Under the pieces are notes generated by a model. That model searched no databases, was not told the DNA's origin, and saw only the letters and a program-made list of their open reading frames with translations. Below are positions 2,639 to 41,187 of a DNA stretch of 64,000 nt, one piece after another; positions within the stretch are counted from its first letter, which is position 1, and every line of letters starts with the position of its first letter. The DNA is from a bacterium (lineage in GTDB: Bacteria > Patescibacteriota > Microgenomatia > Curtissbacterales > GWA2-41-24), in contig JAKAJD010000001.1 in NCBI GenBank assembly GCA_021813945.1, forward strand, positions 496,412 to 560,411, given 5' to 3'. Made by a program: the position numbers and the translations under genes.

Positions 2639-4411
2639 TCACTTGATACTTGCAAGCTTCTTATCAATTCTCATTTCACTTTCGCGCCTGGCCAAATCGT
2701 ATTTGTTAAAATCCACAAACTTCAAAACATTAACCAGTGTTGGATGGATTTTGGCTACGGCTTCCACCTTTAAATGTTCAATTCTTCTGTAGTCCGGATG
2801 TCCCTGCGGTCCTGTCCTAAGTTCTGCTTCCCAAGCAAGTTCCCTCAAATTTTCCCACTGGTACCAGCGGATTTTATGCCCCATCATCACAACATACTGG
2901 GCTTGGTCCGGATAACGCTTTTTGATCTTCCTGTAAAACTTATCGATTTTCCCCGCCGCATCAACATACGGCTTTTCTAACTTAGCACTGACCAAATCAG
3001 GCGGCACGTCAAACCCTAATTCCGTAGTAAGCCTTTGGCGCTCTTGTGTCAACATCCTGTGACGGTGAAGATCTCGATAGCAGCCAAAATTGGCAATCAG
3101 GTCGAACTTGTAATATGTGTTTTCGAAAGCCCGGACCAATCTATGCTGACGCACACCCCGCCCGGCAATAGCCTTTTTGACAATTGAAAGCTTTTGGTTT
3201 GGCTTCATTTTCAAAACTGCTTCTTTGATCTGATGATAGGAAAGTGTCGAGTACTTGTATAGAAGGCTTGCAACAATTCTGTCTTCGGCGTCTGCATCCC
3301 ATTCCACAAGTTCGACATCGCCTCCTTCGCTAAGGCCAAACCTTTTTCCAAGTGAATCGAGTGCTAAGGTCTGGCCTTTTTCATTGTTAAGGCCAGGCCT
3401 TAACGCTTGAGTGTCCGAGGTAAGGGCCTGGCCTTTACCTAGGCTTGCTGCCAGATCCTCCAACGCCTTTTCCGTCTTCGCCACATACTTTTGGTAAATC
3501 CTTCCCTTTTCACTTGTTGCCCGCTCCACCATCGAAGGGATTACTTCCATCATTTCCCTTTGCGCTGCTTTTCCAATTTCCCGAATTTCCGAAAGTGGCG
3601 ATGCCAAACACTTGGTAATCACATATTCAAAGGCTTGCCCGACACCAAAAAATCCAACATTGGTCAGCGTACCTGCCGGCAAGTACGCCCGCAAAACATC
3701 GTAGGCTTTGGCATTCATCGTTTCACGATATGCCCGGTCGCTTTGCCCTTCTTCCTGCTTAAACTTTCGCCTTAAATATTTAGAAAGGGGCTCCAAAGAC
3801 TCGGAATAGCGCCGAAAAAGCATATTGGAAAGTCGAAGGTACTCGGCCCCGTAAGAAGATTTCGCCAAATTCGGGTCTACAAAATACTGCCAGCTGCCTA
3901 AAACCTTCGTATCAAAAGCTACATAGCGGGTCGATTTTTCCAGTGGCGCAAAGCCGATCCTGAAATCCTCCAGAGTTTTTGTGGCAATTTGCGAAACACC
4001 TTCCAAAAATAAATGCGCTCCGGCCATCTGCGCTATAGAATCATCGCCATAGGCGGCAAGCCACCTTGCAAAGAAACTTCTAGCCCGTTTACTATTTACA
4101 ACTGCTTCCCAGCCGCCATGTGTGTGCAGGAAATCTACAAAAGCTATAAGTTCCTTCTTCATAACCTCCGCCTCTTTTTGCGATTTAGAATCAACACCCT
4201 CCAAATTGGGTTCCAAAATTGGCTTTATGTACTCATCGAAAAATAGTCGGCGCACTCCTTTTGTGGATCTCGAATATCGGGATGCTAGTGCTCCCAAAAC
4301 TTCACTCGGCAAGTACTTCGCCGCAAAAATGTTTTTGTCTAAATTAGTAAAAAACGGGGAAATATACCAAGCCTCTTCTTTTGTAAATTTTTCAACCGGA
4401 AATTTATTCAT
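2639..4411 (-). CDS. thyX: FAD-dependent thymidylate synthase ThyX-family protein (long, 590 aa) carrying an in-frame repeat insertion
   Basis: ThyX signature RHR...S (FGCYRDLHRHRMLTQERQ) and LGALASRYSRS motif. The length is comparable to long two-domain ThyX proteins. Residues GKGQALTSDTQALRPGLNNEKGQTLA are encoded by the repeat copies at 3331-3435. Confidence 0.7.
   Translation of the reverse strand: MNKFPVEKFTKEEAWYISPFFTNLDKNIFAAKYLPSEVLGALASRYSRSTKGVRRLFFDEYIKPILEPNLEGVDSKSQKEAEVMKKELIAFVDFLHTHGGWEAVVNSKRARSFFARWLAAYGDDSIAQMAGAHLFLEGVSQIATKTLEDFRIGFAPLEKSTRYVAFDTKVLGSWQYFVDPNLAKSSYGAEYLRLSNMLFRRYSESLEPLSKYLRRKFKQEEGQSDRAYRETMNAKAYDVLRAYLPAGTLTNVGFFGVGQAFEYVITKCLASPLSEIREIGKAAQREMMEVIPSMVERATSEKGRIYQKYVAKTEKALEDLAASLGKGQALTSDTQALRPGLNNEKGQTLALDSLGKRFGLSEGGDVELVEWDADAEDRIVASLLYKYSTLSYHQIKEAVLKMKPNQKLSIVKKAIAGRGVRQHRLVRAFENTYYKFDLIANFGCYRDLHRHRMLTQERQRLTTELGFDVPPDLVSAKLEKPYVDAAGKIDKFYRKIKKRYPDQAQYVVMMGHKIRWYQWENLRELAWEAELRTGPQGHPDYRRIEHLKVEAVAKIHPTLVNVLKFVDFNKYDLARRESEMRIDKKLASIK
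3331..3435. repeat. AAGGYCWGRCCTT palindromic repeat cluster (4 units), in-frame inside thyX
   Basis: taaggccaaaccttt (3331-3345), aaggtctggcctt (3366-3378), aaggccaggcctt (3389-3401), aagggcctggcctt (3422-3435). Confidence 0.8.
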
Positions 4412-4931
4412 AAGATTTTTTTAGCCAGTTTAAAACCTCCCTATCCCAAAATTTCCGGACCCATTTACTTTTGGTTTCATAAAGTAAAATTCTTTTTAGT
4501 CTATCGATTCCAAGCCATTTCACTTCGTCTATTTCATCTTCTTCTAACTTAAATTTAGTAGCATTCGAAAATAAAGCAAAAACACCCTGAAATTCCGCAT
4601 GTTTCGGCTTGTTACTTTTAAAAACGTTGTAAAATTTAAAATCCTTTTTATAGACTTTTATCCCTAACTCTTCCGAAACTTCCGAACAGGCGTTATCCAA
4701 ATAGTCTTCACCCGGCGCAAGATGCCCTCCGAAAAACGCTTCCCAAAATCCTGGATTTTGGTCTTTTTTTAAAGATCTCCTTTGGCATAAGATCTCCTTT
4801 TTTGAATTGATTATCCAGACACCGCTTGTCCTATGCCACATCCTTTTGCCGTGAACTATCTTCCTCGGTTTCGGTGCTAAAGGCTGATTATTTTCGTCAA
4901 CGACAAATAGCAACTCATCCTTATTTATCAT
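4404..4931 (-). CDS. Nudix hydrolase
   Basis: Nudix box-like GGHLAPGEDYLDNACSEVSEELGI (Gx5Ex7[R/S]EUxEExGU). Confidence 0.7.
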   Translation of the reverse strand: MINKDELLFVVDENNQPLAPKPRKIVHGKRMWHRTSGVWIINSKKEILCQRRSLKKDQNPGFWEAFFGGHLAPGEDYLDNACSEVSEELGIKVYKKDFKFYNVFKSNKPKHAEFQGVFALFSNATKFKLEEDEIDEVKWLGIDRLKRILLYETKSKWVRKFWDREVLNWLKKSYE

Positions 4932-5505
4932 TTACGTGCTCGATAACTTCCTTTGCAATTTTCTCTTTAGCCTTTGTCCCGTCCAAAACAATAAATTTAA
5001 ATTCTTTTGCCAAATCCAAATAATTTTTTCTGACTTTTTCCAAAAATTTCTCTTTTTCAAAAAGCTCTTTTTTACCTCTCGAAGTTTTAATACGCTTCAT
5101 CGCAGTAGGAACCGGCACATCCACCAAAAAAGTGGTGTCCGGCATAGGAAAATTTGGGCTAAGGCCTCTTAACCATTTGCCATCCAGATTTAACTGCCCG
5201 TATGCATAAGTTGAAAAATAATACCTGTCGGAGATGACAACTTTGTCAGTCTTGAGAGAAGGCAATATCAATTTGTCCAAATGGTCTGCCCTGTCGGCAC
5301 TATACATTAACTGCAATGCCTCCCAGGAGAATTTAACCTCTCCCCTTAACGCCTTTCGAATTAATTTGCCAATCGGCCCATCGGTTGGCTCACAGGTTTC
5401 AACAACCTTTTTGCCTTTTGATTTTAAGTATTTAAAAAGAAGGTTTGTTTGAGTTGTAGACCCGGCCCCGTCTATTCCCTCGAAAACTATGAACTTTCCC
5501 TTCAT
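4921..5505 (-). CDS. tmk: thymidylate (dTMP) kinase
   Basis: P-loop FIVFEGIDGAGSTTQ, LID region and DRY-like motif VISDRYYFST; typical Tmk length. Confidence 0.88.
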   Translation of the reverse strand: MKGKFIVFEGIDGAGSTTQTNLLFKYLKSKGKKVVETCEPTDGPIGKLIRKALRGEVKFSWEALQLMYSADRADHLDKLILPSLKTDKVVISDRYYFSTYAYGQLNLDGKWLRGLSPNFPMPDTTFLVDVPVPTAMKRIKTSRGKKELFEKEKFLEKVRKNYLDLAKEFKFIVLDGTKAKEKIAKEVIEHVNDK

Positions 5506-6743
5506 GCTTTGTGGATTTTAGAAGCAACAGCTTTCCTGGAACCCGAATATCTGTCCGACCTTGAGCCTTCGTATTTCATTTTGACAGGCGCAGACAATTT
5601 TTCAAAAGTAAATGCACAAATCGCCATTCCGCAATATAAAATTGCGGGCTTTGGCCCTAGATTTCCAAGTTCCAATACCGGCGCCCCGTTCCACCCCGGA
5701 TCAAACCGAGCTGCCGTTGAATGCACCAAAATCCCTAACCTCGCCAGCGAAGATTTACCTTCCAATCTTCCCAAAACATCTGCCGGCAACTTCAAAACCT
5801 CCGAAGTAGATGCAATCGCAAAAGCTCCGGGTTCCAAAATAAACGGATCGCCCTCTGACAAATTTATCTCCTCCATTGCATCTTCAGGCAAACCCCGCCT
5901 TGTATCTATAAACCTGTAAGCACCGGCCCTAAAAAGCTTAATGTTTGTTCCAAGATGAAAATCCATAGAAACCTGGTCAATCTTTTCCCTCCAGTCGGAA
6001 GTCAACGGGTCGATCTTGATCGTTCCTTTTTCTATAAGCTCAGCAATCTGCCAATCCGCCAAAATCCCGGCACCCTCAGTAATTTTTAACTTTTTAATTT
6101 TGACTTTTGACTTTTTATCTTGTTTCATTTGCCGGAAGTAATCATAAATTATCTGACTCCAGGTTTCCATATTTTTATAGGAACGGCCCAGCTGCGCCAT
6201 TGAAACGAGCTCTCCGCTTTTATGCTCGTCTTTTACCTGAATTTTGTCACTATCGCCAACCAAATGGATTACCAGACCTACATGCACTAAGCCGACATCG
6301 TTCGAATCGTCATTTATAATCCCCAAAAAGTTAGCTTTGTAGTTTCCCGAAAAATCAATCTCTTCGGCAAATTCACGCTTGGCCCAACCCAAAAGCCCTT
6401 GCCCGTTCATGTCGCGGCGATTTATATGGCCGCCAATTCCGATTGAATACTTATTGGAAAGACGTTTGTCTGTATGGTCACCTTTTCGGCGCATCAAAAA
6501 AATCTTGCCGTTGTGCTCAAAAATTAAATAAGGGATTATTTGCTGCCACCTTGCATCCGATTCAACTTCGCCTCTTGCCATAAACCTGTGCTTGGAATTT
6601 ATGGTGTTTATGTATTTCTGGACGTTATCGCCCCTTAAGCCGTGCCAAATTCCGCCGGCAAAAATATCGGATCTTGAAACGACCATAACCCGTTCTTCGT
6701 GTTTAGATCCAATTGGTGATTTTTTCTGAGATTTCTTAGGCAT
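5502..6743 (-). CDS. dcd: fusion protein: N-terminal Nudix-like domain plus C-terminal dCTP deaminase/dUTPase-fold domain
   Basis: N-terminal half has REFAEEIDF (Nudix RExxEE). C-terminal half has ILADWQIAELIEKGTIKIDP ... GRLEGKSSLARLGILVHSTAARFDPGWNGAPVLEL, the canonical Dcd motifs. Confidence 0.75.
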   Translation of the reverse strand: MPKKSQKKSPIGSKHEERVMVVSRSDIFAGGIWHGLRGDNVQKYINTINSKHRFMARGEVESDARWQQIIPYLIFEHNGKIFLMRRKGDHTDKRLSNKYSIGIGGHINRRDMNGQGLLGWAKREFAEEIDFSGNYKANFLGIINDDSNDVGLVHVGLVIHLVGDSDKIQVKDEHKSGELVSMAQLGRSYKNMETWSQIIYDYFRQMKQDKKSKVKIKKLKITEGAGILADWQIAELIEKGTIKIDPLTSDWREKIDQVSMDFHLGTNIKLFRAGAYRFIDTRRGLPEDAMEEINLSEGDPFILEPGAFAIASTSEVLKLPADVLGRLEGKSSLARLGILVHSTAARFDPGWNGAPVLELGNLGPKPAILYCGMAICAFTFEKLSAPVKMKYEGSRSDRYSGSRKAVASKIHKA

Positions 6744-14380: not shown

Positions 14381-14881
14381 TTAATTTCCCCGCTTCTCTT
14401 CTTCGCGTTGTTTTTTTAATTCTATTGCGGTTTGCATAATTTCCCCTAACTGCCTTGTTGCTTCAAGCCTAAGCCTTAAGGCAAGCAGTGGTGACTTAAC
14501 CGGGGTAAACCGTGTACTAAATTGCTGATAATCTAGCCGACTCCTATTGAGTCCGGATCTCTGCCTCTGTGTTGTGTAAATCCCCCTTCTTTCGGCTGTA
14601 ACTATCGCAAAAGTTCCGTCATCGTGGGGAATAAGAAGCCCGTGACCTGTCTTCGGCACCTGACCCAAATCCAGCGCTTCAACTGGAGTGGTTTTTGCTT
14701 TTCTGGACCCTAATTGACCCGGATCTACAAAATGCTCTTTTGGAATACAGCCCATTTCCCTTGCTTCGGCTAACATCAGAACAAGCAATTTATCTGCTCT
14801 TGTAACTTGCTCAGCAACGCCCTTCCAAATCTTTGATCTTTCCGATTCAAATTGTCTCAATCTCTGTTCCGCTCGCTCCAT
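14381..14881 (-). CDS. hypothetical protein
   Basis: 166-aa ORF in a GC-richer block; no family recognised. Confidence 0.4.
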   Translation of the reverse strand: MERAEQRLRQFESERSKIWKGVAEQVTRADKLLVLMLAEAREMGCIPKEHFVDPGQLGSRKAKTTPVEALDLGQVPKTGHGLLIPHDDGTFAIVTAERRGIYTTQRQRSGLNRSRLDYQQFSTRFTPVKSPLLALRLRLEATRQLGEIMQTAIELKKQREEEKRGN

Positions 14882-14896
14882 AAAAACGTTTTGAAA

Positions 14897-15214
14897 TTAA
14901 AGTCTCTCTTCAATTCTTTCAGAAACAGAAGTACCGTGGATTGCATCATATGCCCTGGCTGCCTCAAGTGCATCCATAACCGTACCCTGCCTGCTATAAA
15001 CAATAAGACCGAAAACAGCATCAGCCTCACTTTTTACCCTTCCTTCAATATTCATTGCATCACACTCTTGGGAGATTGCAGTCGCAACAGCTTCTGGTGT
15101 TGGGACTGCCACGGCACCTAAAGCGTATAGATGTCCGGCAAAATCTTCTAAACCTTCTCGAAGCGCTCTTTCTGACATGGGAAAAAATATATTCTTATTG
15201 TGGATTTTTGTCAA
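14897..15214 (-). CDS. hypothetical protein, paralogue of the C-terminal part of the next gene
   Basis: DALEAARAYDAIHGTSVSERIEERL aligns with NAMTAARLYDAINDTSILPIVTERV of ORF 15229-15954. Confidence 0.45.
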   Translation of the reverse strand: MTKIHNKNIFFPMSERALREGLEDFAGHLYALGAVAVPTPEAVATAISQECDAMNIEGRVKSEADAVFGLIVYSRQGTVMDALEAARAYDAIHGTSVSERIEERL

Positions 15215-15228
15215 ACAATCTTTGCATT

Positions 15229-15954
15229 TTAAGCTACCTTTTTTCTACTGCTAGCATTACGCTTGCTAATCGTTCGAAGCCTCGAAATTTCCTTAAGAAA
15301 AAAGTCCCGTAATGCAATGCAACGACTTTTTGCATGAACTCTTTCCGTGACTATTGGCAAAATAGAAGTATCATTTATGGCATCGTACAGTCTGGCTGCA
15401 GTCATTGCGTTTACTAACATACCTTTTGGGTTATTTACAATAAGGCTTGCAGCAGCATCTTCCCGCGAATAATTATCATCCAATTTCATAACGCGCAACT
15501 GGTCACTTACCGCAGCCTCTACCGCATCCATTGACTGGTCTTGGATAATTCCCATATCACTAAAGGTCGAAGCAAGGCGGCTCCCCGTTGCTCTCAAGTC
15601 AAAAAGTTTGTCTAGGGCTGAGTCTGCAAAATCGTACATCATGTTCCAGGCAGGACCGCCACCTTTTTTATCTGCGCTTTCACGAACAGCTTTGAGCAAT
15701 TCTCTTCTCTGTTCATCATTATTTCCTCCATCTAAAGGCTCAATACAGTCTACGTAGGGCATCTCTATAGATTTATTTATTATTCTTTCTGCACCGCCGC
15801 GCTTATATTCCAGCAAATCCACAGTTGCTAAAACGGAAACGACCATTTTGACGTAAGCCTCTCTCCTTAGTTCGTATACCGTTTTACCCGTGGAAGGCTT
15901 AGTGGTCTCTGTAGCATCAGTTTGAGCCACAGGGCTTGAATCAAACTCAATCAT
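15229..15954 (-). CDS. hypothetical protein; tandem paralogue of 14897-15214
   Basis: Shared C-terminal domain with the adjacent small ORF; no family recognised. Confidence 0.45.
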   Translation of the reverse strand: MIEFDSSPVAQTDATETTKPSTGKTVYELRREAYVKMVVSVLATVDLLEYKRGGAERIINKSIEMPYVDCIEPLDGGNNDEQRRELLKAVRESADKKGGGPAWNMMYDFADSALDKLFDLRATGSRLASTFSDMGIIQDQSMDAVEAAVSDQLRVMKLDDNYSREDAAASLIVNNPKGMLVNAMTAARLYDAINDTSILPIVTERVHAKSRCIALRDFFLKEISRLRTISKRNASSRKKVA

Positions 15955-15977: not shown

Positions 15978-16538
15978 TCAAACTTTTTCAAACATTTCCG
16001 CTTCGAGCTTCGCCCGGCCGGCAATAAACTTGGCGGCAAGCTTTGCCTGCTCGCGGCGAAATGCTAGAGATGTCATAAGAGCGTTTTTGTTAAGTTCTAA
16101 AACCAGCTTTTCCAGGCTTTGGGCGTCAAATGCCAAAGCCACGCTTTTGTAGTTTTTAACTGCAGCGCGAATTAAAGCCTGCCCGCCGATGTCCATAGAT
16201 TCCGGAAAAGTTTCGGCATTTGGGGCATATAAATCGACAACCACAAGGTCAAACGGTTCCAGGTTTTCGCTTTTTAACTGGGTCGAATGGTCCGCATTTT
16301 CCCTATCTGCCAAAATTCGCACAAAATTTGCCCGGTCTAAACTTTTAACTCGCCCGCTGTAGTCAAAACCGCGCAAAACCGATTCGGCCTTAAAGCCTTT
16401 TTCGCGAACATAATTGGCGGTTCCTTCGGTTCCCCAAAACTTTGTCCTTTGCTTGTCCAAAACTCCCAAAAGACCATCGAGAATACTTTTTTCAAAAACC
16501 GCCGCAAAAACGTTATTTACCTCAATTAAACCTTCCAT
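15978..16538 (-). CDS. stand-alone MGS-like / IMP cyclohydrolase-like domain protein (PurH N-domain homologue, possibly degenerate)
   Basis: Aligns with the PurH N-domain: GRVKSLDRANFVRILADR vs GRVKTLHPKVHGGILGRR; FDLVVVDLYAP vs IDMVVVNLYPF; SMDIGGQALIRAAVKNYKSVALA vs [23 protein letters not shown]. The SVSDK and HPK motifs are altered. Confidence 0.65.
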   Translation of the reverse strand: MEGLIEVNNVFAAVFEKSILDGLLGVLDKQRTKFWGTEGTANYVREKGFKAESVLRGFDYSGRVKSLDRANFVRILADRENADHSTQLKSENLEPFDLVVVDLYAPNAETFPESMDIGGQALIRAAVKNYKSVALAFDAQSLEKLVLELNKNALMTSLAFRREQAKLAAKFIAGRAKLEAEMFEKV

Positions 16539-16658
16539 GAAATTTTTAGTTTTTAATTTTCAATTTTTAAAGAAATCTTAATTTCTTAATTTTAAAACAT
16601 TTTGACATTATTAAATTTATTTCAAATTGAAAATTTCGAATTTCAAATTTCTCTTACT

Positions 16659-17627
16659 TTAGTGCTTAAAGTGCCTCACTCCCGTAAACACCATTGTTAT
16701 ACCATGCTTTTTTGAAGCGGCAATAACTGCTTCGTCATTTATAGACCCGCCCGGCTGGATAATTGCCGAAATTCCGGCTTTAGCTGCTAGTTCCACATTG
16801 TCCGGAAACGGAAAAAACGCATCGCTTGCCATAACTGCCCCTGCAGTTTTGTCCTTGGTAACTGACCAGTTTCTGCCCTCCGGCTTCCTGCCTTGTGCTT
16901 GGTGAAGGGCAAGCATTGTTGAATTAACCCTGTTCGGCTGTCCGGTGCCCATTCCAAGCATATTTTCGCCCCGGGCCAAAACTATTGCGTTGCTTTTGAC
17001 ATGCTTTACAACTTTCCAGGCAAATTCCAAATCTGCTTCAGTCTTTTTGTCTGGTGATTTCCCGCAAACGACTTTCCAAGTTTTTGGTGATTCGTCAATT
17101 TCATCTGCAGTCTGGACCAGATAACCGCCAAAAGCACGCGTAAATTCCAAAAGTTTTGCAGGCTTGTCGGCTTTGACAACACGCATTTTGGCGCTTCGCT
17201 TTTTTAATCTTTCCAAAATCGGTTCCGAAAATTTTGGCGCTACCATTAGTTCAAAAAATTTGCCCTTCATGGCCTCGATCATGTCCAAAGTTGGCTCACA
17301 ATTTAGGGCAACGATTCCTCCAAATGCGCTGACCGGATCCGCAGCAAAAGCAGTATTAAAAGCACGGGTTAAATCCTCGTCCGAGGTAATTCCGCTGGGA
17401 TTTGCGTGTTTAATGATAGCTACAGTCGGGCGAGTAAATTCCAAAACGAGTTTCCAGGCCTGGTTGGCATCACCGATATTGTTATGCGAAAGCTCAATTC
17501 CCCAAAGCTGCTCAAAACCCGGCTTCCCGTCACCTAGGTAAAACGCGCTTCTCTGGTGGGGGTTTTCACCATATCGTAAATCCTTGAGTTTCTTGAGGTT
17601 TATTTTTAGGTCTTTTGATAACTGCAT
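16659..17627 (-). CDS. purH: AICAR transformylase domain protein (PurH C-domain as a separate gene)
   Basis: LRYGENPHQRSAFY, KHANPSGI, SAFGGIVALN, SDAFFPF, IQPGGSINDEAVIAA and GITMVFTGVRHFKH are all canonical AICARFT motifs. Confidence 0.85.
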   Translation of the reverse strand: MQLSKDLKINLKKLKDLRYGENPHQRSAFYLGDGKPGFEQLWGIELSHNNIGDANQAWKLVLEFTRPTVAIIKHANPSGITSDEDLTRAFNTAFAADPVSAFGGIVALNCEPTLDMIEAMKGKFFELMVAPKFSEPILERLKKRSAKMRVVKADKPAKLLEFTRAFGGYLVQTADEIDESPKTWKVVCGKSPDKKTEADLEFAWKVVKHVKSNAIVLARGENMLGMGTGQPNRVNSTMLALHQAQGRKPEGRNWSVTKDKTAGAVMASDAFFPFPDNVELAAKAGISAIIQPGGSINDEAVIAASKKHGITMVFTGVRHFKH

Positions 17628-22629: not shown

Positions 22630-23952
22630 ATGTCGATCCTTTTAAAATCCGACCCACAAATCGCCAAACTGATTGCTGCCGAAGAAAAACGCCAAAAAGA
22701 AGTTTTGGAAATGATTCCTTCCGAAAATTATGCTTCTGCTGTTGTGAGATCGGCTCTTGGCACAGTTTTAACTAACAAATATTCAGAAGGCTACCCCAAA
22801 AAACGTTACTATCAGGGAAATCGGGTAATCGACGAAGTGGAATCACTGGCAATCGAACGTGCCAAAAAACTTTTCGGCGTTCCCTATGTCAATGTCCAGG
22901 CGCTTTCCGGTTCCCCTGCCAATTTGGCTGTTTATGTCGCACTTTTGGAACCTCTAAAAGACAAGGTCATGGGGCTTTCTTTAGCTTTCGGAGGTCATTT
23001 GACCCACGGACAACCACAATCCGTAACCGGCCGATATTACAAATCAGTGCTGTATGAATTGGGAAAAGACGGTCGGCTGGATTATGACGCGATAGAAAAA
23101 CAGGCCATGCGAGAAAAGCCGAAAATAATAGTCTGCGGATTTACGGCTTATCCAAGGATTATCGATTTCAAACGCTTCGGCCAGATTGCCGACAAAGTGG
23201 GCGCCTTTTTACTTGCAGATGTTTCCCATATAGCCGGACTGATTGCAGCTGGCGTCCATCCGTCGCCTGCACCGTATGCCCACATCATAACCACAACAAC
23301 CCATAAAACTTTGCGCGGACCCCGAGGTGCTTTAATCATGGTCACCCAAAAAGGATTGAAAAAAGATCCGGAATTGGGCAAAAAAATCGACAGTGCCATT
23401 ATTCCCGGAATCCAAGGCGGACCCCATGATGACCAAACCGCATCAATCGCCGTCGCCCTAAAAGAAGCCTCGACCCCCGCCTTCAAAAAATACTCCGCTC
23501 AAATCGTCAAAAACTCCAAAACCCTCGCCGCAGAACTTAACAAATTTGGGTTTGATTTAGTCTCTGGCGGATCCGACAACCACTTGATCTTGATTGATCT
23601 CAGAAACAAGGGCGTCAACGGATCGGTTGCAGCTTATGCATTGGAAGTAGCCGGAATTGTTATAAACAAAAACGGCGTCCCTTTTGACACTATGCCGCCT
23701 TTTTACCCTTCCGGAATCCGCCTCGGCACTCCGGCAATAACAACCCGCGGAATGAAAGAATCCGAAATGAAAAAAGTTGCCGCCTGGATGAACCGCGCAA
23801 TCGAAGAAGTCAAAGGCGAAAAACTGCCGGAAGACAAAGAAAAACGCAATGATTTTCTCAAGAATTTCCGCGCCCGCGCCGACCGTAACAAAAACCTCCT
23901 CAAAATCGCCGCCGAAGTCAAAACCTTGACTAGCAAATTCCCAATTCCATAA
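22630..23952 (+). CDS. glyA: serine hydroxymethyltransferase
   Basis: TNKYSEGYPKKRYYQGN, PLP-lysine region TTTTHKTLRGPRG, SGGSDNHLILIDL. Confidence 0.95.
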   Translation: MSILLKSDPQIAKLIAAEEKRQKEVLEMIPSENYASAVVRSALGTVLTNKYSEGYPKKRYYQGNRVIDEVESLAIERAKKLFGVPYVNVQALSGSPANLAVYVALLEPLKDKVMGLSLAFGGHLTHGQPQSVTGRYYKSVLYELGKDGRLDYDAIEKQAMREKPKIIVCGFTAYPRIIDFKRFGQIADKVGAFLLADVSHIAGLIAAGVHPSPAPYAHIITTTTHKTLRGPRGALIMVTQKGLKKDPELGKKIDSAIIPGIQGGPHDDQTASIAVALKEASTPAFKKYSAQIVKNSKTLAAELNKFGFDLVSGGSDNHLILIDLRNKGVNGSVAAYALEVAGIVINKNGVPFDTMPPFYPSGIRLGTPAITTRGMKESEMKKVAAWMNRAIEEVKGEKLPEDKEKRNDFLKNFRARADRNKNLLKIAAEVKTLTSKFPIP

Positions 23953-24384: not shown

Positions 24385-25380
24385 ATGGCAAAAATCTTAG
24401 ACGGCCGGACTGTGCGCGACAAGATATTAGACAATCTTAAAACGCAGATCGCTAATCTTAAAACGAAACCAAAACTGATTATTATTCAAGTCGGCGACCT
24501 GGATGAAAGCAACACTTATATCGGGCAGAAAATTAAATTCGGCCAGAAAATCGGTGCCATTGCCGAACTTAAAAAATTCCCCGCCGACATTACTCAAAAC
24601 CAGCTGACCTCCCAGCTCCAACAGCTAAATGCTGACCCAACAGTCCACGGCATTATCATCCAGCTGCCAATTTCCCAACATTTGGACAAAGACGAATTGA
24701 TAGAGATGATTGATCCAAAAAAAGACGTTGATGGTCTAACTGCTACAAACGAAGAACTTTTGGAAGAAAACAATCCCGATGCCTTAGTCCCCGCAACCGC
24801 CAAAGGCGTCATCACCATCCTTAACTATTACAAAGTGCCGATTAAAGGCAAAAAAGCAGCAGTTGTCGGCCGATCTAAACTTGTCGGCAAGCCGGTAGCA
24901 ACGCTTCTCAGAAATTTGGGAGCCGAAGTTGAAGTCGGCCACAGCCAAACGCCGAATCTGACAGTTCTTACAAAACCGGCAGACATCATCGTTGTCGCCG
25001 TCGGGAAACCAAACTTAATCACCAAAAACCACGTTTCCCCCGGCCAAACAGTAGTCGATGTAGGTATAAACGTTGTCCAACCGGACAAGGTCAGGCCTTG
25101 GAAAACTGAAAGGCCTGACCTTAAAATCAAAGAAAAAGGCCTGACCTTAGCTAAGCCAGATGACAAGGCCAGGCCTTTTGCCAACGACGGATCTCAGTTA
25201 AGGCCTGGCCTTAACGCAAGCCGAAAACTCGTTGGCGACGTCGCCTTCACCGAAGTCGAACCAATTGTCGCTGCCATTACCCCCGTCCCCGGCGGCATTG
25301 GCCCCATGACCGTCGCCTCCCTCTACGAAAACCTTCTCCTAGCCTACGAATCCCAAAAATTAATTTCTAAAAGGAGCTAA
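24385..25380 (+). CDS. folD: bifunctional methylenetetrahydrofolate dehydrogenase/cyclohydrolase carrying a ~45-aa repeat-encoded insertion
   Basis: LIIIQVGD..S..Y, DVDGL, AVVGRSKLVGKPVATLL, VVDVGIN, ITPVPGGIGPMTVA. Insertion VRPWKTERPDLKIKEKGLTLAKPDDKARPFANDGSQLRPGLNASRKL lies between VDVGINVV and GDVAFTE, where canonical FolD has a short loop. Confidence 0.9.
   Translation: MAKILDGRTVRDKILDNLKTQIANLKTKPKLIIIQVGDLDESNTYIGQKIKFGQKIGAIAELKKFPADITQNQLTSQLQQLNADPTVHGIIIQLPISQHLDKDELIEMIDPKKDVDGLTATNEELLEENNPDALVPATAKGVITILNYYKVPIKGKKAAVVGRSKLVGKPVATLLRNLGAEVEVGHSQTPNLTVLTKPADIIVVAVGKPNLITKNHVSPGQTVVDVGINVVQPDKVRPWKTERPDLKIKEKGLTLAKPDDKARPFANDGSQLRPGLNASRKLVGDVAFTEVEPIVAAITPVPGGIGPMTVASLYENLLLAYESQKLISKRS
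25087..25212. repeat. AAGGYCWGRCCTT palindromic repeat cluster (5 units), in-frame inside folD
   Basis: aaggtcaggcctt (25087-99), aaggcctgacctt (25110-22), aaggcctgacctt (25136-48), aaggccaggcctt (25165-77), aaggcctggcctt (25200-12). Confidence 0.85.
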
Positions 25381-29027: not shown

Positions 29028-29879
29028 ATGGAAAAAAGACTAAAAATCATCTTTTTTGGCAGCAGTAAATATTCTGTTATTGATGCTATCGCGCTTCACA
29101 AATCCTTTGGTCTTGAAACAATCGTTACAAGTCCAGACAAAGCAAAAGGCCGCCATAAAGAATTGGTTCCGGCACCGCCAAAAAAATTCGCAACAGAAAA
29201 CAATATCCCTGTAATAACAGCAGACGAAATAGAAGAAAGCCTTATTACAAAAGTTAAAAACCTAAATCCGGACTTTATTGTTGTTGCCGATTATGGACAC
29301 ATTCTTCCAAATACTTTGTTGAATATCCCAAAATACGAACCTTTAAACATCCATCACTCGCTTCTTCCAAATTACCGAGGACCCACTCCGGCACCTTCTG
29401 CGATTCTTGCCGGCGAAAAAGAAACCGGCCTTACGATTATAAAAATGACAGAGGATGTTGATGCCGGGCCAATTTACGCTCAGGAAATTTACAAATTAAA
29501 ACCAAATGAAACGACAGAAACGTTGTTGACAGAACTAAATACAATCGGTGGTAGACTTGCAGTAAAAGTTATAGAAGAAATTGCATCAGGAAAAAACCAG
29601 CCCAATCCGCAGAATAAACCGACTACAGATTACACACCGAAACTAACTAAACAGTCTGGCAAAATCGATATCGAAAATCCACCAGATCCAAAAACTTTAG
29701 ACCGCATGACTAGGGCATATTATCCTTGGCCTGCTGTCTGGACAAAAGTCGAAGGCAAGATAATCAAATTTCTTCCCGATCGCAAAATCCAGCCCGAAGG
29801 AAAACGGCCAATGAGCCTAAAAGAATTCCAAAACGGTTATCCAAAACTTTCTCAAGTAATTTCGACTTTATTTAACTAA
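29028..29879 (+). CDS. fmt: methionyl-tRNA formyltransferase
   Basis: IIFFGSS N-terminus, NIHHSLLPNYRGPTP (HxSLLPxxRG) and the def-fmt operon context. Confidence 0.9.
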   Translation: MEKRLKIIFFGSSKYSVIDAIALHKSFGLETIVTSPDKAKGRHKELVPAPPKKFATENNIPVITADEIEESLITKVKNLNPDFIVVADYGHILPNTLLNIPKYEPLNIHHSLLPNYRGPTPAPSAILAGEKETGLTIIKMTEDVDAGPIYAQEIYKLKPNETTETLLTELNTIGGRLAVKVIEEIASGKNQPNPQNKPTTDYTPKLTKQSGKIDIENPPDPKTLDRMTRAYYPWPAVWTKVEGKIIKFLPDRKIQPEGKRPMSLKEFQNGYPKLSQVISTLFN

Positions 29880-35008: not shown

Positions 35009-36388
35009 ATGGATCCACAAGCTCCCCCTCCTCAATACCCTCCAGTTTCACCGCCAACACAAGTTCCAAATCCAGCCTCGCCTGCTATAAACATAGTCCA
35101 GGAACCGCCTCAAAAATCCCCAAAAAAGCTTTTTTTAATTATCCTGGCTGGCCTAGTCATCACACTAGTAACAGCATCTACCAGCGTTTACTTTTTCTAT
35201 TACCTACCACGCAAAAACACAACCGAAAACATCAGCTCTGTCTCGAAGTCGGTTTCCGATTTTAAAACATCTGTTTCTCAAATTAATTCATTGCTTCAGG
35301 ACATATCAAACCTTTCTCTTGGCAAAAAAGGCTCAGATTCAACATCGCTTCAAGTTTCGGGGCTAGCAATCCACCCTCAAATCGCCAGTTTAGAGCAAAA
35401 CACCAAAGTTCTCGGGGCAAAAACGTCACCCCAACTTGGACCAATCGAAACAGACGTCTCCAGTCTCAAAAAGATGATTATCTCCGAAAACCCATTTAAA
35501 AAACATCAAAACTCCAAGGTAGCAGGGGCAACAACTACTTCCGAAAGCGAAAGTGTAATAAATTCACGCAAAATCAAAGACGATTCCAGCAAAGCTCTTG
35601 ATACGGTAGACAGCGGCACTAAAAACCTGAAGGAGGTAACCGCAAAAACTGCAAACTTGAAAGGTGTTCCAAATAAAAGTAAAGCGATTTTAGAAAACAT
35701 TACTTATAAAGAGAGCGCAAACAGCTATTTAGAAGAAGCAGGAAAAATCTCAAATTACTACAACACCTTAAGCAGTACTACAATTGCACTAGACAGTAAA
35801 ATTAGATCGTACCAAGCTCTGATCGCAGAAGCCTCTGCGGAAATTGGGGCTGCCTTAACTACAAAGAATCTCTATGATGCAAAAGACGCTGTCGGCGCAG
35901 CACAAATATCACTTAACAAGGCAAATCAGTTAGCGCAAGATATAAAATCCCTTGGGTCAACGCTTGAGTCTACAGGTCAAACCAGTATGCCAAACGCTGC
36001 CCAAAAGTACCAACAGCACAACCTTAAAGTTGTCTCCTCAGTCACTGACTATTTCACAAGCGAGACAGAAATCCTGAAAAAATTCTCGACAACGCTGGAC
36101 GGTAGTATCACTACTGCCCAGCAAAGGCCGCTCAGCACAGACGAAGTTAACACCCTTTCTCAAGCATGGAACACTGCAATTTCCCAAGAAAATTTAGCTG
36201 ACGCAAACTTTACTACAGAACTGACAGCCCTATTAGGTGAAGAGATTAACCTCGCAGCCTCTTTCTGGCAAGATAATGGTATTTTAAGATTAAGCACAAG
36301 TGTTAATGGTGACATCGATACTTATCAAAAAGCGCTAAACGACCTAAAAACTGCCAATAAAATTCCATTCCAGAAAACCACCAACTAA
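35009..36388 (+). CDS. hypothetical membrane-anchored protein with Pro-rich N-terminus
   Basis: PPQYPPVSPPTQVPNPASP, then one TM, then a long polar extracellular region. Confidence 0.45.
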   Translation: MDPQAPPPQYPPVSPPTQVPNPASPAINIVQEPPQKSPKKLFLIILAGLVITLVTASTSVYFFYYLPRKNTTENISSVSKSVSDFKTSVSQINSLLQDISNLSLGKKGSDSTSLQVSGLAIHPQIASLEQNTKVLGAKTSPQLGPIETDVSSLKKMIISENPFKKHQNSKVAGATTTSESESVINSRKIKDDSSKALDTVDSGTKNLKEVTAKTANLKGVPNKSKAILENITYKESANSYLEEAGKISNYYNTLSSTTIALDSKIRSYQALIAEASAEIGAALTTKNLYDAKDAVGAAQISLNKANQLAQDIKSLGSTLESTGQTSMPNAAQKYQQHNLKVVSSVTDYFTSETEILKKFSTTLDGSITTAQQRPLSTDEVNTLSQAWNTAISQENLADANFTTELTALLGEEINLAASFWQDNGILRLSTSVNGDIDTYQKALNDLKTANKIPFQKTTN

Positions 36389-36430
36389 AGTAATTAACAT
36401 CCAAAGGGCTTTCCTGCTAAAATTATACTA

Positions 36431-36805
36431 ATGCCCAAACGACCAGGATTCACCTTAATCGAAGTCCTGCTTTCTTCATTTTTCTTTATCGCTCTTATCA
36501 CCATCCTCCTTTCTTCCTCCGGAACACTTCTAAATACCAGAAAAACTAATCTGGAAACTGTAGCTGCCAAAATCGCCAGCAAACAAATAGAAGACTTAAG
36601 AAATATGGCTTACACCTCAGTCGCCTCAGGACCGATTACAGATACCGATCTCTCAAAGTTACCCCAAGGGGCAGCAAACAAAACTGTCACAAACTACCAA
36701 TCCAGTGCAGACATAAAAGACGTATTAATAACAGTCACCTGGACAGAAAACAGTGCAGCAAAACAACTTAAAATGGAAACACTAATTTATAAAAACGGCC
36801 TTTAA
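36431..36805 (+). CDS. type IV pilin / pseudopilin (prepilin N-terminal methylation motif)
   Basis: KRPGFTLIEVLLSSFF: class III signal G|FTLIE followed by a hydrophobic helix. Confidence 0.75.
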   Translation: MPKRPGFTLIEVLLSSFFFIALITILLSSSGTLLNTRKTNLETVAAKIASKQIEDLRNMAYTSVASGPITDTDLSKLPQGAANKTVTNYQSSADIKDVLITVTWTENSAAKQLKMETLIYKNGL

Positions 36806-36807
36806 TC

Positions 36808-37461
36808 ATGGCAATTAAAAAGCATAGAAAAAGACTCGCGGATCTTCTAAGGGGTATGTCGGTTGTCGAAATAACAGCGGCAATTGGCATTATTGGAATT
36901 ATATCCATAATGGTGGTTTCCATTTATTTTGCCCACTTCCGGCTTTTTTCCAACCAAAGTAAAACCATAGATGTTGCCAATGAAACAAGAATCGCCTTAG
37001 ACGCCATTACAAACCAAATCCGGGAATCTTCCGCAGTTGTTTCGAGCTGCCCGGTAGGTTCGCCATACAATGGATGCGGCGGTGCAACCACCTCCTCAAC
37101 TGCCACCTCCTGTAATAACACAACTAGCTACTCAGCAAAAGTCGTTTTGCAGTTGTGGCCGCTTGACTCCAATGGCAACCCAACCGATCCTGGTAGCTCA
37201 AATTACGATTACGTTGTCATAAAAAAAGACGACTTGGAAAATACCAAACTCAAAATGATAACCTACCCCTCAAGTATAAGTTCAAGAAAACCCTCGTCAT
37301 TAATACTTTCCGACGAGATATCCTGCCTCAGCTTTACTTTTGATAACGCTGACCCAACTCAAGCATCCGAAGTCACCGCAGGGATTACTAACACCACAAC
37401 CCAATTTGGCAAAACTTACATACAGGCACAAGAAACAAAAGCAGTGATTAGAAATAAATGA
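36808..37461 (+). CDS. minor pilin-like protein
   Basis: LLRGMSVVEITAAIGIIGIISIMVV: prepilin-like N-terminus (G|MSVVE). Confidence 0.5.
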   Translation: MAIKKHRKRLADLLRGMSVVEITAAIGIIGIISIMVVSIYFAHFRLFSNQSKTIDVANETRIALDAITNQIRESSAVVSSCPVGSPYNGCGGATTSSTATSCNNTTSYSAKVVLQLWPLDSNGNPTDPGSSNYDYVVIKKDDLENTKLKMITYPSSISSRKPSSLILSDEISCLSFTFDNADPTQASEVTAGITNTTTQFGKTYIQAQETKAVIRNK

Positions 37462-38678
37462 AAAAAAGCATACTAGTAACAAACTTAAGAGGCCAGGTTT
37501 TGATAATAGCCATCATTTTTATGGCAGTAGTTTTGATACTTTCCGCTTCCATGCTTTCCAAAGTCGGCAGTTACCTTCGCTTCGGTGCAATTTCCGTCCA
37601 AGGCGAACAGGCAATCGAGCTTGCAGAAGCAGGAGTTGATAACGCAGTTTGGCAATTAAACTTGAATGCTGGAGCGTGCCCCCCAGCGACATGCAGCAAC
37701 GAAATCGCAATTGGCACAGCCGGAACATTCAAGGTAGCAATCCAAGATAAGTCATCAAATTTAAAAACCATAACCTCAACTGGGTATATTCCAAATTCCA
37801 CAAACCCAAAACAGAAAAGAACAATAAAAGTAGATATTGGAATAAACAATGAGATAGTCGAATTCAACTACGCCGTTCAGGTGGGTGACGGTGGTGTTGA
37901 TCTTGGGCAAGGTGCTCAAATAACAGGCGCTGGAGGAACACCCGGAAATGTCTATTCTAATGGAAACATAACAGGAAACCAAAGTTCAGTAATAACAGGC
38001 GATGCTTGGGCAGTTGGAACAATTTCAAATCCTCCAACCGTACAAGGTACGCGACACCCCGGGTCGCCACAAACAGACATGCCACAATTTAATTATCAGC
38101 AGTGGATAGATGAAGCAACAAACGGCGGCACTATTAATTGCACTCTAACACCTTCTCAGTGTAACCTCTCGGGATTCGCAACTATAGGCAGAAGAATGTA
38201 TATTAACGGTGACTTAAATTTTGCTCAAGGCACAATTGTCACTATGACAGGACCAGTTTATATCCGGGACGGGAACTTAGACATGGGTCAAGACACCCGC
38301 CTTGATCTGGATAGCAGCTTCGGATCCACATCAGTAGCGCTTGTGCTGAATGGAACAGTCAACGTAGGGCAAAACTCATCAATAAACCCTACAAGTGCAA
38401 GTCCTAAGGGTTACATCCTGGTTGCAACACCATCAAACGCAAACCCTGCAATTAGAATCAGCCAATCTGGGGCGAATGCCATCTTCTATGCGCTAAACGG
38501 CGAAGTTAGACTCATTCAATCATCACACGCCACTGCTGTTATTGCCAAAAGATTAACTCTTGGCCAATCAGTAATTTTGACTTATGACGAAGGTTTAGCA
38601 TCAACAAATATTTCAGGCGGCCCGGGTGGCTCCTGGCAAATTAAAAAGGGCACATATAAACAAACTGTTTCACCGTGA
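37458..38678 (+). CDS. PilX-like / minor pilin assembly protein (N-terminal TM anchor)
   Basis: N-terminal hydrophobic helix LIIAIIFMAVVLILSASMLS typical of PilX-like proteins; sits in the pilin cluster. Confidence 0.4.
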   Translation: MKKSILVTNLRGQVLIIAIIFMAVVLILSASMLSKVGSYLRFGAISVQGEQAIELAEAGVDNAVWQLNLNAGACPPATCSNEIAIGTAGTFKVAIQDKSSNLKTITSTGYIPNSTNPKQKRTIKVDIGINNEIVEFNYAVQVGDGGVDLGQGAQITGAGGTPGNVYSNGNITGNQSSVITGDAWAVGTISNPPTVQGTRHPGSPQTDMPQFNYQQWIDEATNGGTINCTLTPSQCNLSGFATIGRRMYINGDLNFAQGTIVTMTGPVYIRDGNLDMGQDTRLDLDSSFGSTSVALVLNGTVNVGQNSSINPTSASPKGYILVATPSNANPAIRISQSGANAIFYALNGEVRLIQSSHATAVIAKRLTLGQSVILTYDEGLASTNISGGPGGSWQIKKGTYKQTVSP

Positions 38679-40864
38679 AATCAAGAGTTTCAATAAAAAT
38701 CTTCACAGTATCAGTAATCACCACCATTCTGCTTCTTCTTAAAATTAGCCCAGTCTTCGCATTAAACTACAATTTAGTGCCAAACTCGTCGTTTGAAGAA
38801 GGTGAAACCTTTCCTACCGGGTGGAATATCGTAACAAGTGACTTTTGCAACATTCCCGCATCAAATTATCAGTCTTCTGTCGAATGGAGCTCCTCTAGAT
38901 CAAGTACTGGTTCTAAATCCGTAGGCATTACAAACGTTTACCTCCCAAACCAGGGAGACTACACCTCCGTAAAAATAGCATCAGAATTCATCCTGATAAA
39001 CCCTATACAAATCTACAACTTAAGTGCCTTAATCCAGGGAACGACTGGGAACAAAGGCATAAAACCAGAAATCGACGTATGCTTCTACGATAAAGACGGA
39101 AACAAAACCGGAATAAATAGTGTCACGTCTCAGTATCCGCCTGACGATAAAACATGGTATGGAATTTCGTTTGGAGGATTAAAACTGAGCTACTTTCCAC
39201 CAAACACAACAAAAATAAAAGTTGGGCTATCAGCAAACTGCAGTTACCAATTTCTACCGCCAGGGGCAGCACAAGATTGTTCTGGTTCCATCTGGTTAGA
39301 CGACATTAGTCTTCTTCCCCTGGGCAATATTACTATGCATAAATTTGAAGATTTAAACAAAAACGGATTGCAGGACATAAACGAACCAAATCTTCAATAT
39401 TGGGAAATGTCCGTCTATAAAGAAGCAAACTGTGACAGCTCAAAAGAAATCGGCGGGGCATCAACCGACGCAAGCGGTAATGCAATATTTAAGAACACTC
39501 CATTCGGGGACTACTCCGTTAAGGAAACATTCTACTACGAAGACTTTAATCCTCCACCACATCTCGTAGATGCCACAAAAGAAGGTTGGTATACTACAAC
39601 TCCACTTTGCCAAAACGTCACCCTAGATTCTACTTCCGGTGCAACAGTCAACATTGGCAACTTCCATGGTCCCTCTTTTCCCTATCTCAGCCAACTTGAC
39701 CCGGCTTGGAAAGACCTAACGTACGATCATGCATCCACCTCAAACCCGTTTTTTTGCGGAACGACAATTGGCGGTTGTGGCTGTGCCATAACTTCGGCTG
39801 CAATGCTCCTAAATTACTATGGTGTTTCGAGAACTCCAAGCGGCAATCCTACTAATCCCCAAACCTTAAACGATTGGCTAAATCAAAATCAGGGTTATGC
39901 TTTTGGAGCCTTAAAGTGGAATTCAGTCGCTGCATATTCTGTTAGGGTAAACGAAAACTTCGGCACTCAAAAAATCCGCTTCGTAGGTGTTGGAAGCGGC
40001 AATGATTTTGATACCCTCAATACCGATCTTGCAAACTCTAAGCCCGAAATTTTAGAAGAGCCGGGTCATTTTATCGTCGCAAACGCCAAGCAAGACCCAA
40101 CATATCAAATCGCAGATCCAGCGTACGAAAACAAAAAGACACTTGCCACCTATTCCAATAATTTCTTAAGCTCAAGAAGATATGAAAAAACAAATACAGA
40201 CCTAAGCTCCATCTATATTTCAAGCCCGACTCCAAACGACTTATTCATTACGGATTCCCTCGGAAGATCGACTGGCAAAAATCCCGAAACAGGCGAAATT
40301 CTAACTCAAATACCTAATTCTTATTATTTTGTTGAACCGTCCTTTACCAATCAAACAGATCCTAATTCTCAGGTTCCAAACACCGGTGTAACCACACTTG
40401 TTATCATCAATCCAGAGGAGGGTAGCTTTACTTTGGATTCCAAATCCGGACCGATTGATGTTTCAGCTTATGACACTCTAGGCAATATCCAAGTCAAAAA
40501 TTTCGAAACTGTGGCGCCAGACACATTCGAACTTAACTACTCACCGAATACTGGATCGACTTTTAAAGTTTTTCAAAAAGTTTCTATCGACTTAAAACCT
40601 CAAAACATAAATAAAGGAAATGGAGTTTTTCCAATAGTCATAAAATCGGACGACAACTTTAATGTCCAAGATATAGATTTTCAGTCAATACAACTTTCGC
40701 CTTCTGGTATTTCGCCGATTAAGTTTCCGCTTCTGGTCTCAAACGGAAAAGATAATAAAAAAGACCTTCAAATTTTCTTTCTCGCCTCACAAATTTCCAG
40801 AAACAATAATCTTTGCTTAACCGGCACCACAATAAGCGGAATCCAATTTAAGGGTTGTACTTAA
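38675..40864 (+). CDS. large secreted protein with Cna-B/SdrD-like domain and C39-like (papain-fold) cysteine peptidase domain
   Basis: Signal peptide; MHKFEDLNKNGLQDINEP (SD-repeat B/Cna B-like); FFCGTTIGGCGCAITSAAMLLNYYG resembles the peptidase C39/C39_2 active-site Cys motif. Confidence 0.5.
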   Translation: MKSRVSIKIFTVSVITTILLLLKISPVFALNYNLVPNSSFEEGETFPTGWNIVTSDFCNIPASNYQSSVEWSSSRSSTGSKSVGITNVYLPNQGDYTSVKIASEFILINPIQIYNLSALIQGTTGNKGIKPEIDVCFYDKDGNKTGINSVTSQYPPDDKTWYGISFGGLKLSYFPPNTTKIKVGLSANCSYQFLPPGAAQDCSGSIWLDDISLLPLGNITMHKFEDLNKNGLQDINEPNLQYWEMSVYKEANCDSSKEIGGASTDASGNAIFKNTPFGDYSVKETFYYEDFNPPPHLVDATKEGWYTTTPLCQNVTLDSTSGATVNIGNFHGPSFPYLSQLDPAWKDLTYDHASTSNPFFCGTTIGGCGCAITSAAMLLNYYGVSRTPSGNPTNPQTLNDWLNQNQGYAFGALKWNSVAAYSVRVNENFGTQKIRFVGVGSGNDFDTLNTDLANSKPEILEEPGHFIVANAKQDPTYQIADPAYENKKTLATYSNNFLSSRRYEKTNTDLSSIYISSPTPNDLFITDSLGRSTGKNPETGEILTQIPNSYYFVEPSFTNQTDPNSQVPNTGVTTLVIINPEEGSFTLDSKSGPIDVSAYDTLGNIQVKNFETVAPDTFELNYSPNTGSTFKVFQKVSIDLKPQNINKGNGVFPIVIKSDDNFNVQDIDFQSIQLSPSGISPIKFPLLVSNGKDNKKDLQIFFLASQISRNNNLCLTGTTISGIQFKGCT

Positions 40865-40904
40865 CCCTTGCCAAATTTGCGCCTGATCCGCTAAACTTAC
40901 CTCT

Positions 40905-41093
40905 ATGGCAAAGTCAAAAAGAGTCTTGTTCCAGCTGCAATGCACTGTTTGTAAATCGAAAAATTACACAAACAGCAAAAATCCGGACAATATCGCGCTA
41001 AAGCGCAAAAGCCAGGACACCAAAATTAACCTCAAAAAGTTCTGTAAGCGTTGCAGAAAAGTTACCGAGCATAAAGAGGTCAAGATAGCTTAA
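40905..41093 (+). CDS. rpmG: 50S ribosomal protein L33
   Basis: Zinc-ribbon CTVCKS...CKRC and KVTEHKEVK; typical L33 length. Confidence 0.88.
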   Translation: MAKSKRVLFQLQCTVCKSKNYTNSKNPDNIALKRKSQDTKINLKKFCKRCRKVTEHKEVKIA

Positions 41094-41138: not shown

Positions 41139-41187
41139 TTCGCGAACTCCCTTGCCTCAAAGACCCAAAACCCTTAATCTATAAATA

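Follow-up and report, generated by a model that had tools for sequence, protein, structure and literature searches.

Does a bacterium in which the two domains of the purine enzyme PurH are encoded by two separate genes, placed in the reverse of the canonical order, still possess both activities of PurH, or has one of the halves decayed? The question is raised by a locus on the minus strand of contig JAKAJD010000001.1 (assembly GCA_021813945.1), from a Curtissbacteria-type bacterium. Throughout the text the window means the whole stretch of 64,000 nt that was analysed, of which the locus occupies positions 15978-17627. Our analysis suggests as the likely answer that the two genes, purV and purJ, jointly replace the canonical bifunctional PurH in this genome, as the outcome of an old lineage-specific fission of purH in Curtissbacteria-type Microgenomates that left the halves in swapped order. 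As proposed herein, PurV would move the formyl group from 10-formyl-tetrahydrofolate (10-formyl-THF) onto 5-aminoimidazole-4-carboxamide ribonucleotide (AICAR, or ZMP) to give the formylated intermediate FAICAR, and PurJ would close the ring to convert FAICAR into inosine monophosphate (IMP), a step that would pull the unfavourable PurV step forward, as in PurH. The locus consists of the following features.

16659..17627, minus strand: purV, predicted stand-alone AICAR formyltransferase (AICARFT), the C-terminal half of canonical PurH (322 aa; PF01808, NF002049)
16539..16658, minus strand: AT-rich intergenic spacer between purV and purJ, exactly 120 bp
15978..16538, minus strand: purJ, predicted stand-alone IMP cyclohydrolase (IMPCH), the MGS-like N-terminal half of canonical PurH (186 aa; divergent Curtissbacteria-type clade)

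Two genes for the two domains of PurH

Both open reading frames (ORFs) had been located in a first-pass annotation of the stretch, and their coordinates and sizes, as well as the spacer, were confirmed on the minus strand. In fact, the 322-aa ORF scores 266 bits against Pfam PF01808 (cutoff 25; E 4.9e-79) and covers positions 202-510 of the 510 positions of the NCBIfam PurH model NF002049 (E 1.6e-111); the 186-aa ORF covers positions 5-180 of the same model and matches the NCBIfam PurH models at E 3.8e-24 and 3.8e-17, where the model cutoffs are set for the full-length bifunctional protein. The two ORFs are PurH halves cut at the domain boundary (5-180 and 202-510) with their order reversed, AICARFT preceding IMPCH, so that each PurH domain has its own gene here, just as in the split purV/purJ system described in other bacteria.

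The AICARFT motifs read earlier in the 322-aa ORF are borne out by alignment. PurV residues 13-322 align nearly over the full length with the AICARFT domain of Mycobacterium tuberculosis PurH (E 1.2e-65), with the motifs LRYGENPHQ, IIKHANPSG (opposite IIKHANPCG of the M. tuberculosis protein), GMGTGQPNRV, SDAFFPF, QPGGS and RHFKH. The catalytic Lys-His pair of AICARFT (PMC9525906), which is Lys267/His268 in ATIC numbering and K73 and H74 in PurV, shows 100% conservation across 121 clade sequences, and so do the motifs RYGENPHQ, GQPNRV, SDAFFPF, PGGS and RHF.H, and 92 positions are invariant. The ratio of nonsynonymous to synonymous substitution rates (dN/dS) of purV is 0.054 against the closest relative (L006). 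Judging from its sequence, PurV probably formylates AICAR with 10-formyl-THF; as a member of its family it would act as a homodimer whose active site lies at the interface. Moreover, it reaches 373.6 bits on the bifunctional PurH model, compared with 146.9 bits in three fragments on NF005492, the NCBI model for stand-alone AICARFT; such a far better fit speaks for a fission that occurred independently in a bifunctional ancestor, and suggests that the split in this clade is separate from that of the previously modelled stand-alone AICARFT family.

How widely the split is kept was seen by scanning 185,579 species representatives, one genome for each species, which yielded 63 loci. The clade-type purJ is present in about 22 of them, on closely related contigs only, and its named carriers are Candidatus Curtissbacteria and one Amesbacteria, both belonging to Microgenomates within the candidate phyla radiation (CPR). 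The fetched loci with both genes visible also number 22; three of these are assemblies of one Amesbacteria genome, and about 20 distinct Curtissbacteria-type genomes are included. All 22 have mreB, PBP2, purV, purJ, a variable stretch and dprA in this order on one strand, and fusion of purV and purJ occurs in none, so the reversed split that had been claimed from this one stretch extends to the whole set. The spacer ranges from about 0 to 142 bp among the relatives, with lengths that are not multiples of three. The scan hits outside the clade (Pelagibacterales, Chlamydiae, Bathyarchaeota, WOR-3 and others) all have the canonical fused order. The 120 best relatives of PurV are all about 308-349 aa long and none is fused, and an exhaustive HMMER search with purJ revealed a tight isolated clade of four representative clusters below E 1e-30, followed by a gap to canonical PurH at about 1e-19.

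It may be asked whether a single gene was made to look split by an error of sequencing or assembly, considering that purV and purJ share a reading frame, 40 codons apart (16536-16661), and that a frameshift breaks purV in the Amesbacteria assembly GCA_000997715.1 (L003, 3503-4460). The latter frameshift is absent from an independent assembly of the same sample (L004, 3231-4202); it is probably an assembly error rather than a pseudogene. As for the locus studied here, however, the domain order is the reverse of that in PurH, so no frameshift could yield the canonical protein; the spacer holds five additional stop codons; the identical 186-aa protein recurs in assemblies made independently (NCBI and ENA; GCA_027349345.1 and others) and on a 976-kb contig; and the same split recurs in about 20 genomes. 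The additional stops together with the non-triplet spacers of the relatives exclude a frameshift artefact, to which we assign practically no probability, in agreement with the doubt that the gene order had already cast on it. Since spacer lengths differ among relatives, the common frame of the two genes in this genome is coincidental.

The two genes are probably co-transcribed as one unit, because they are adjacent, lie head to tail on the same strand and have no terminator-like sites between them: a scan for consensus sites found neither a terminator-like nor a sigma-70-like promoter site on the minus strand of the spacer. A regulatory RNA in the spacer was considered as well and rejected together with a terminator. 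The fold of the spacer is not significant (z -0.47), and the Rfam matches of the whole window at gathering score are four tRNAs only, none of them in the spacer, which therefore has no ZTP riboswitch.

How the halves came to be swapped can be pictured, speculatively, as a tandem duplication of purH followed by loss of the two outer halves. No remnant supporting this route was found downstream of purJ, nor any fused intermediate among the 120 best PurV relatives. The 241-aa ORF at 15229-15954 was tried as a remnant of a duplicated AICARFT domain and rejected, with BLASTP against PurV at E 7.1 and no Pfam or PHROG match. It is one of three ORFs without Pfam or PHROG match that lie between purJ and dprA (14381-15954, minus strand), and it has a paralogue in the 105-aa ORF of this group (BLASTP E 1e-10 across about 80 residues). 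This stretch is variable across the relatives: several have dprA right after purJ, and one has a Y1 transposase there.

Some further records deserve mention. A 483-aa protein (P0256), whose residues 325-477 match IMPCH, had the look of a circularly permuted AICARFT-IMPCH fusion, and was ruled out since its N-terminal 320 residues are unrelated and it represents the beginning of an ordinary purH on a contig that is cut short. In one locus (L015) purV is truncated to 273 aa. Seven records carrying the locus (L007, L008, L017, L018, L020, L023 and L027) are titled 'uncultured Gammaproteobacteria' or 'Saccharimonadales'; as synteny and the 52-95% identity of MreB, PBP2 and DprA place these contigs with Curtissbacteria, the titles are probably mislabelled.

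Active site and divergence of PurJ

Whether PurJ can still be an enzyme merits closer attention, as the first-pass annotation had described the 186-aa ORF as degenerate in its motifs, and possibly inactive or repurposed, on account of substitutions in the SVSDK and HPK regions. Our alignment comprises 122 clade members, the N-domains of 72 full-length PurH, 33 stand-alone IMPCH-like proteins and human ATIC, whose numbering reproduces the published residue numbers. The IMPCH active site as given in a structure paper on Cryptococcus ATIC consists of Arg, Lys, Thr, Tyr, Asp, Ile and Gly, at human-equivalent positions 64, 66, 67, 104, 125, 126 and 127 (PMC9525906). In PurJ the residues R63, K65, S66, Y104, D116, I117 and G118 stand for human R64, K66, T67, Y104, D125, I126 and G127, and K128 stands for K137. 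The last was added to the list by us, as we take Lys137 to be catalytic from the mutagenesis literature. All 122 clade members share R63, K65, Y104, D116, G118 and K128; at position 66 they have Ser or Thr and at position 117 Ile or Val, and the equivalents of Lys14, Thr37, Arg133 and Asn138 are conserved in the clade too. Upon careful alignment, all listed active-site residues are thus retained, and the degeneracy supposed for the small ORF does not hold at these positions; the first-pass annotation had itself named this outcome as one that would refute its reading.

The predicted structure leads in the same direction. An AlphaFold2 (AF2) model built with 59 family sequences has a mean predicted local distance difference test score (pLDDT) of 92.9 and a predicted template-modelling score (pTM) of 0.90, and its top Foldseek match is the IMPCH domain of M. 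tuberculosis PurH (3zzm) with a template-modelling (TM) score of 0.86. It superposes on solved IMPCH domains of PurH, including the human, avian, fungal and Thermotoga enzymes, with TM scores of 0.79-0.86, and its 25 best matches are all PurH/ATIC or ForH; genuine MGS-like domains such as that of carbamoyl phosphate synthetase reach only 0.40-0.48. Moreover, purJ is under purifying selection, with a dN/dS of 0.098 against the same closest relative, for which dS of the two genes is 0.66-1.27 and thus unsaturated.

What stands of the earlier description is the substitutions themselves. The canonical S-V-[SYF]-D-K reads A-V-F-E-K in PurJ, and K-T-L-H-P-K reads K-S-L-D-R-A; Lys14 of the first motif is kept, and the S-V-x-D-K loop and K-T-L-H-P segment are otherwise not matched. 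In human numbering, the departures, of which those at Ser10, Gly35, His69-Pro70 and Gly75 would surround the nucleotide pocket, are as follows.

Ser10 to Ala (Ala13 of the query): in 122 of 122 clade members, compared with Ser in 71 of 72 full-length PurH
Gly35 to Glu: in 91 of 122 clade members
His69-Pro70 to Asp-Arg (Asp68-Arg69 of the query): fixed in the clade
Gly75 to Arg: fixed in the clade
Asn102 to Asp: fixed in the clade
Pro-Phe 105-106 to Ala/Lys-Pro: fixed in the clade

Besides, the loop before the catalytic Lys (human 104-125) is 2 residues shorter when human and query sequences are compared by eye. This loop is the mobile lid that closes upon ligand binding in ATIC (PMC9525906), and it is the least confident part of the AF2 model. 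We treat the changes in the S-V-x-D-K and K-T-L-H-P motifs as a signature of the clade, and not as a failed catalytic test, because their positions are absent from the published list of active-site residues (PMC9525906).

A further departure is in the rate of change. In similarity to 70 full-length PurH, PurJ averages 5.4 identity points below PurV, whereas canonical pairs that have diverged to a comparable degree show the opposite, with an N-domain more similar by 1.9 points (sd 5.2); this excess suggests some acceleration or altered substrate handling in PurJ. The similarities of PurV and PurJ to the 70 proteins are uncorrelated (Spearman -0.16). The nearest canonical relatives (L028 and L029, 37-41% identity) were considered as a clue to a donor, and no donor lineage could be named from them; they have a fused purH in a context that does not look like CPR, with citrate and TctA transporters and purB.

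Several of these observations count against a joint replacement of PurH and in favour of a different account, namely that PurV works as a lone AICAR formyltransferase and PurJ is a dead relic of the IMPCH fold, or else has taken on another role, be it that of a partner for regulation or scaffolding or that of an enzyme acting on a different nucleotide. The replaced Ser10, Gly35, His69-Pro70 and Gly75 are near-invariant in canonical IMPCH; the lid is shortened; PurJ has diverged faster than PurV; and its Pfam MGS score of 18.7 bits falls below the gathering score of 24.1. Moreover, ForH (6nko) is a stand-alone protein deposited under a secondary-metabolism name and not as PurH, so the fold can serve other substrates. 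On the other hand, the catalytic side chains are invariant over 122 sequences, position 15 (Phe or Ser) is within the canonical range of Tyr, Ser and Phe, selection at a dN/dS of about 0.1 is strong, and purJ always adjoins purV, among housekeeping genes and outside any biosynthetic gene cluster. Across genomes whose synonymous sites are saturated, a dead relic would have lost its conservation. A relic or repurposed PurJ thus seems quite improbable to us, and purJ is better understood, as far as sequence and model can tell, as a moderately accelerated yet constrained gene whose product probably remains an active enzyme.

Folate supply and the source of AICAR

If purV and purJ indeed replace PurH, they would need 10-formyl-THF and AICAR. 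For the former, the window contains the four folate genes that had been listed earlier, all of which are confirmed by Pfam matches.

2639..4411, minus strand: thyX, flavin-dependent thymidylate synthase, a consumer of methylene-THF (590 aa; PF02511 E 7.6e-30, two Thy1 stretches)
22630..23952, plus strand: glyA, serine hydroxymethyltransferase, which makes 5,10-methylene-THF (PF00464 on the identical gene in L001)
24385..25380, plus strand: folD, methylene-THF dehydrogenase/cyclohydrolase, which makes 10-formyl-THF (PF00763 and PF02882 on the identical gene in L001)
29028..29879, plus strand: fmt, methionyl-tRNA formyltransferase, the one further user of 10-formyl-THF in the window (PF00551 E 1.8e-35, PF02911)

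From the established folate pathway we infer that GlyA and FolD, encoded 5-8 kb away, could supply the one-carbon unit and make the 10-formyl-THF used by PurV. As for thyX, its product is about twice the usual length and looks tandem-duplicated or fused, and the gene heads a tightly packed cluster thyX-NUDIX-tmk-dcd (2639-6743) in which stop and start codons overlap.

The source of AICAR is a more difficult matter. Histidine synthesis releases AICAR, and purH is retained in Buchnera to recycle it. It is conceivable likewise that the two enzymes work here as an orphan two-step module whose upstream de novo steps have been lost, with AICAR from the host, the environment or histidine synthesis being turned into IMP; as this is a special case of the replacement of PurH by purV and purJ, the two are not exclusive. 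In fact the window holds no pur gene besides purV and purJ, and no his gene, despite thyX and further genes of nucleotide metabolism (tmk, dcd, a NUDIX gene and an HD phosphohydrolase). CPR bacteria are generally reported without complete nucleotide synthesis (PMC3812714, PMC7143001, PMC8407418), with variation by lineage, which makes the orphan module a live possibility; and the confinement of clade-type purJ to about 22 closely related contigs among all the species representatives points to lineage-specific retention. The lack of neighbouring pur genes and the general picture of CPR also weigh somewhat against a PurH replacement serving a full pathway. However, the 64 kb are about 6.5% of a genome of about 976 kb, so absence from the window says little, and purine capacity varies among candidate phyla (Kantor et al., PMC3812714). 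Moreover, in a survey of 1,403 genomes, the 132 without the final two steps were for the most part also devoid of the remaining pathway genes (PMC6486802), which implies that the last two steps tend to be kept or lost together with the pathway, and neither an AICAR transporter nor an AICAR kinase was found in the window and the flanks. Altogether we regard the orphan module tentatively, as a serious possibility though not the expected case.

A more elaborate scenario can be drawn, in which an episymbiont lacking all upstream purine steps is fed by AICAR or its riboside leaked from the host, the remodelled pocket of PurJ (S10A, G35E, HP to DR, shortened lid loop) reflects altered substrate handling or a dedicated PurV-PurJ complex, and the swapped order is a fossil of a permutation by purH tandem duplication. 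We consider it unlikely in this full form.

Returning to the joint replacement of PurH by purV and purJ, its meaning for these organisms is twofold. Although the usual description of CPR bacteria is that they cannot make nucleotides, a narrow Curtissbacteria-type clade keeps, under strong purifying selection and near genes of formyl-folate supply, what seem to be the final two steps to IMP. Should the upstream pathway be present, the dependence of these organisms on hosts for purines would be lower than has been assumed; should it be absent, the module would point to AICAR as a specific metabolite passing between host and symbiont. For enzymology, the clade offers a natural experiment, that is, an IMPCH which, if active as sequence and model predict, tolerates the replacement of the near-universal Ser10 and His69-Pro70. 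Furthermore, public records name both genes 'bifunctional ... PurH' or 'hypothetical', an annotation that is misleading.

Apart from these genes, a few properties of the window are worth recording. Its GC skew is negative in 32 of 32 two-kb bins (-0.04 to -0.24), irrespective of gene strand; skew in one direction across whole chromosomes has been reported in other Microgenomates (PMC7143001), and 64 kb is too short to show it. If the listed starts are correct, the Pfam domains of NusG (53215-54126, plus strand) and of ribosomal proteins L1 (55736-56668, plus strand) and L7/L12 (57877-58470, plus strand) are preceded by N-terminal extensions, about 130, 120 and 70 residues long, respectively. 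The plus-strand stretch 35009-43701 is a run of large ORFs with little or no family match and may encode a pilus or surface apparatus; one of the products (837 aa) carries a type IV pilin N-methylation motif, another (729 aa) has a C39-like peptidase domain, and a further one is a DUF7305 protein.

Comparison with known split and fused enzymes

A split PurH as such is of a known kind, and the weight the first-pass annotation gave to it as unusual was overstated. According to Cruz et al. (2019, Genome Biol Evol; PMC6486802), stand-alone genes for AICARFT and IMPCH, named purV and purJ and argued to replace purH, occur as a pair in 44 of 1,266 bacterial genomes and are typical of several families and orders, with pairs in Prevotellaceae, Fervidobacteriaceae, Thermodesulfobacteria, Desulfovibrionales and Desulfobacterales, some of them in mutual context. 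Such pairs take the place of purH in about 5% of bacterial genomes (PMC6486802), and the parts of the survey that were consulted name no CPR lineage among the carriers. The present genes resemble these pairs in having one gene for each PurH domain, with predicted roles in steps 9 and 10 of purine synthesis. They differ in that purV and purJ are here always immediately adjacent and in that order, that they lie between cell-wall genes (mreB, PBP2) and dprA and not among pur genes, and that PurV fits the bifunctional PurH model better than the stand-alone NF005492. In three sampled stand-alone purJ genes from outside CPR, no purV was present within 4-5 kb. A literature search found nothing linking CPR with purH or AICAR, nor anything specific to nucleotide metabolism in Curtissbacteria. 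We accordingly found no earlier description of purV/purJ in CPR, of the constant purV-then-purJ adjacency between cell-wall genes and dprA, or of the clade-specific signature of PurJ.

Compared with canonical PurH/ATIC (M. tuberculosis 3zzm, human 1pkx), both domains are homologous over their full length and both catalytic sets are retained, while there are two polypeptides instead of one and the gene order is swapped; the halves remain linked after fission, in opposite order. The IMPCH half further differs by S10A, G35E, HP69-70 to DR, G75R, N102D, PF105-106 to A/K-P and a shorter 104-125 loop. That fusion is unnecessary for either activity follows from two known cases. The unfused PurH2-type IMPCH AF1811 of Archaeoglobus fulgidus, with 25-29% identity to characterised enzymes, was shown to convert FAICAR to IMP with a kcat of about 1 per second and complements E. 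coli (Hunter et al. 2019, PMC6797443); and the separated human domains are active, with no channelling in the fused enzyme (PMC6797443). By description, PurJ is like AF1811 in being a naturally stand-alone and divergent IMPCH domain. AF1811 differs in its archaeal origin, in working alongside the formate-dependent PurP and in the lack of a folate-dependent PurV next to it.

ForH is presumably part of the formycin biosynthetic cluster of Streptomyces, where we take it to act on a pyrazole nucleotide. It resembles PurJ in size (about 200 aa) and fold (TM 0.73-0.77), with 25-26% identity to it. Unlike a gene in a nucleoside-antibiotic cluster, purJ stands in a conserved housekeeping context, with mreB, PBP2, purV, dprA and topA, in about 20 genomes.

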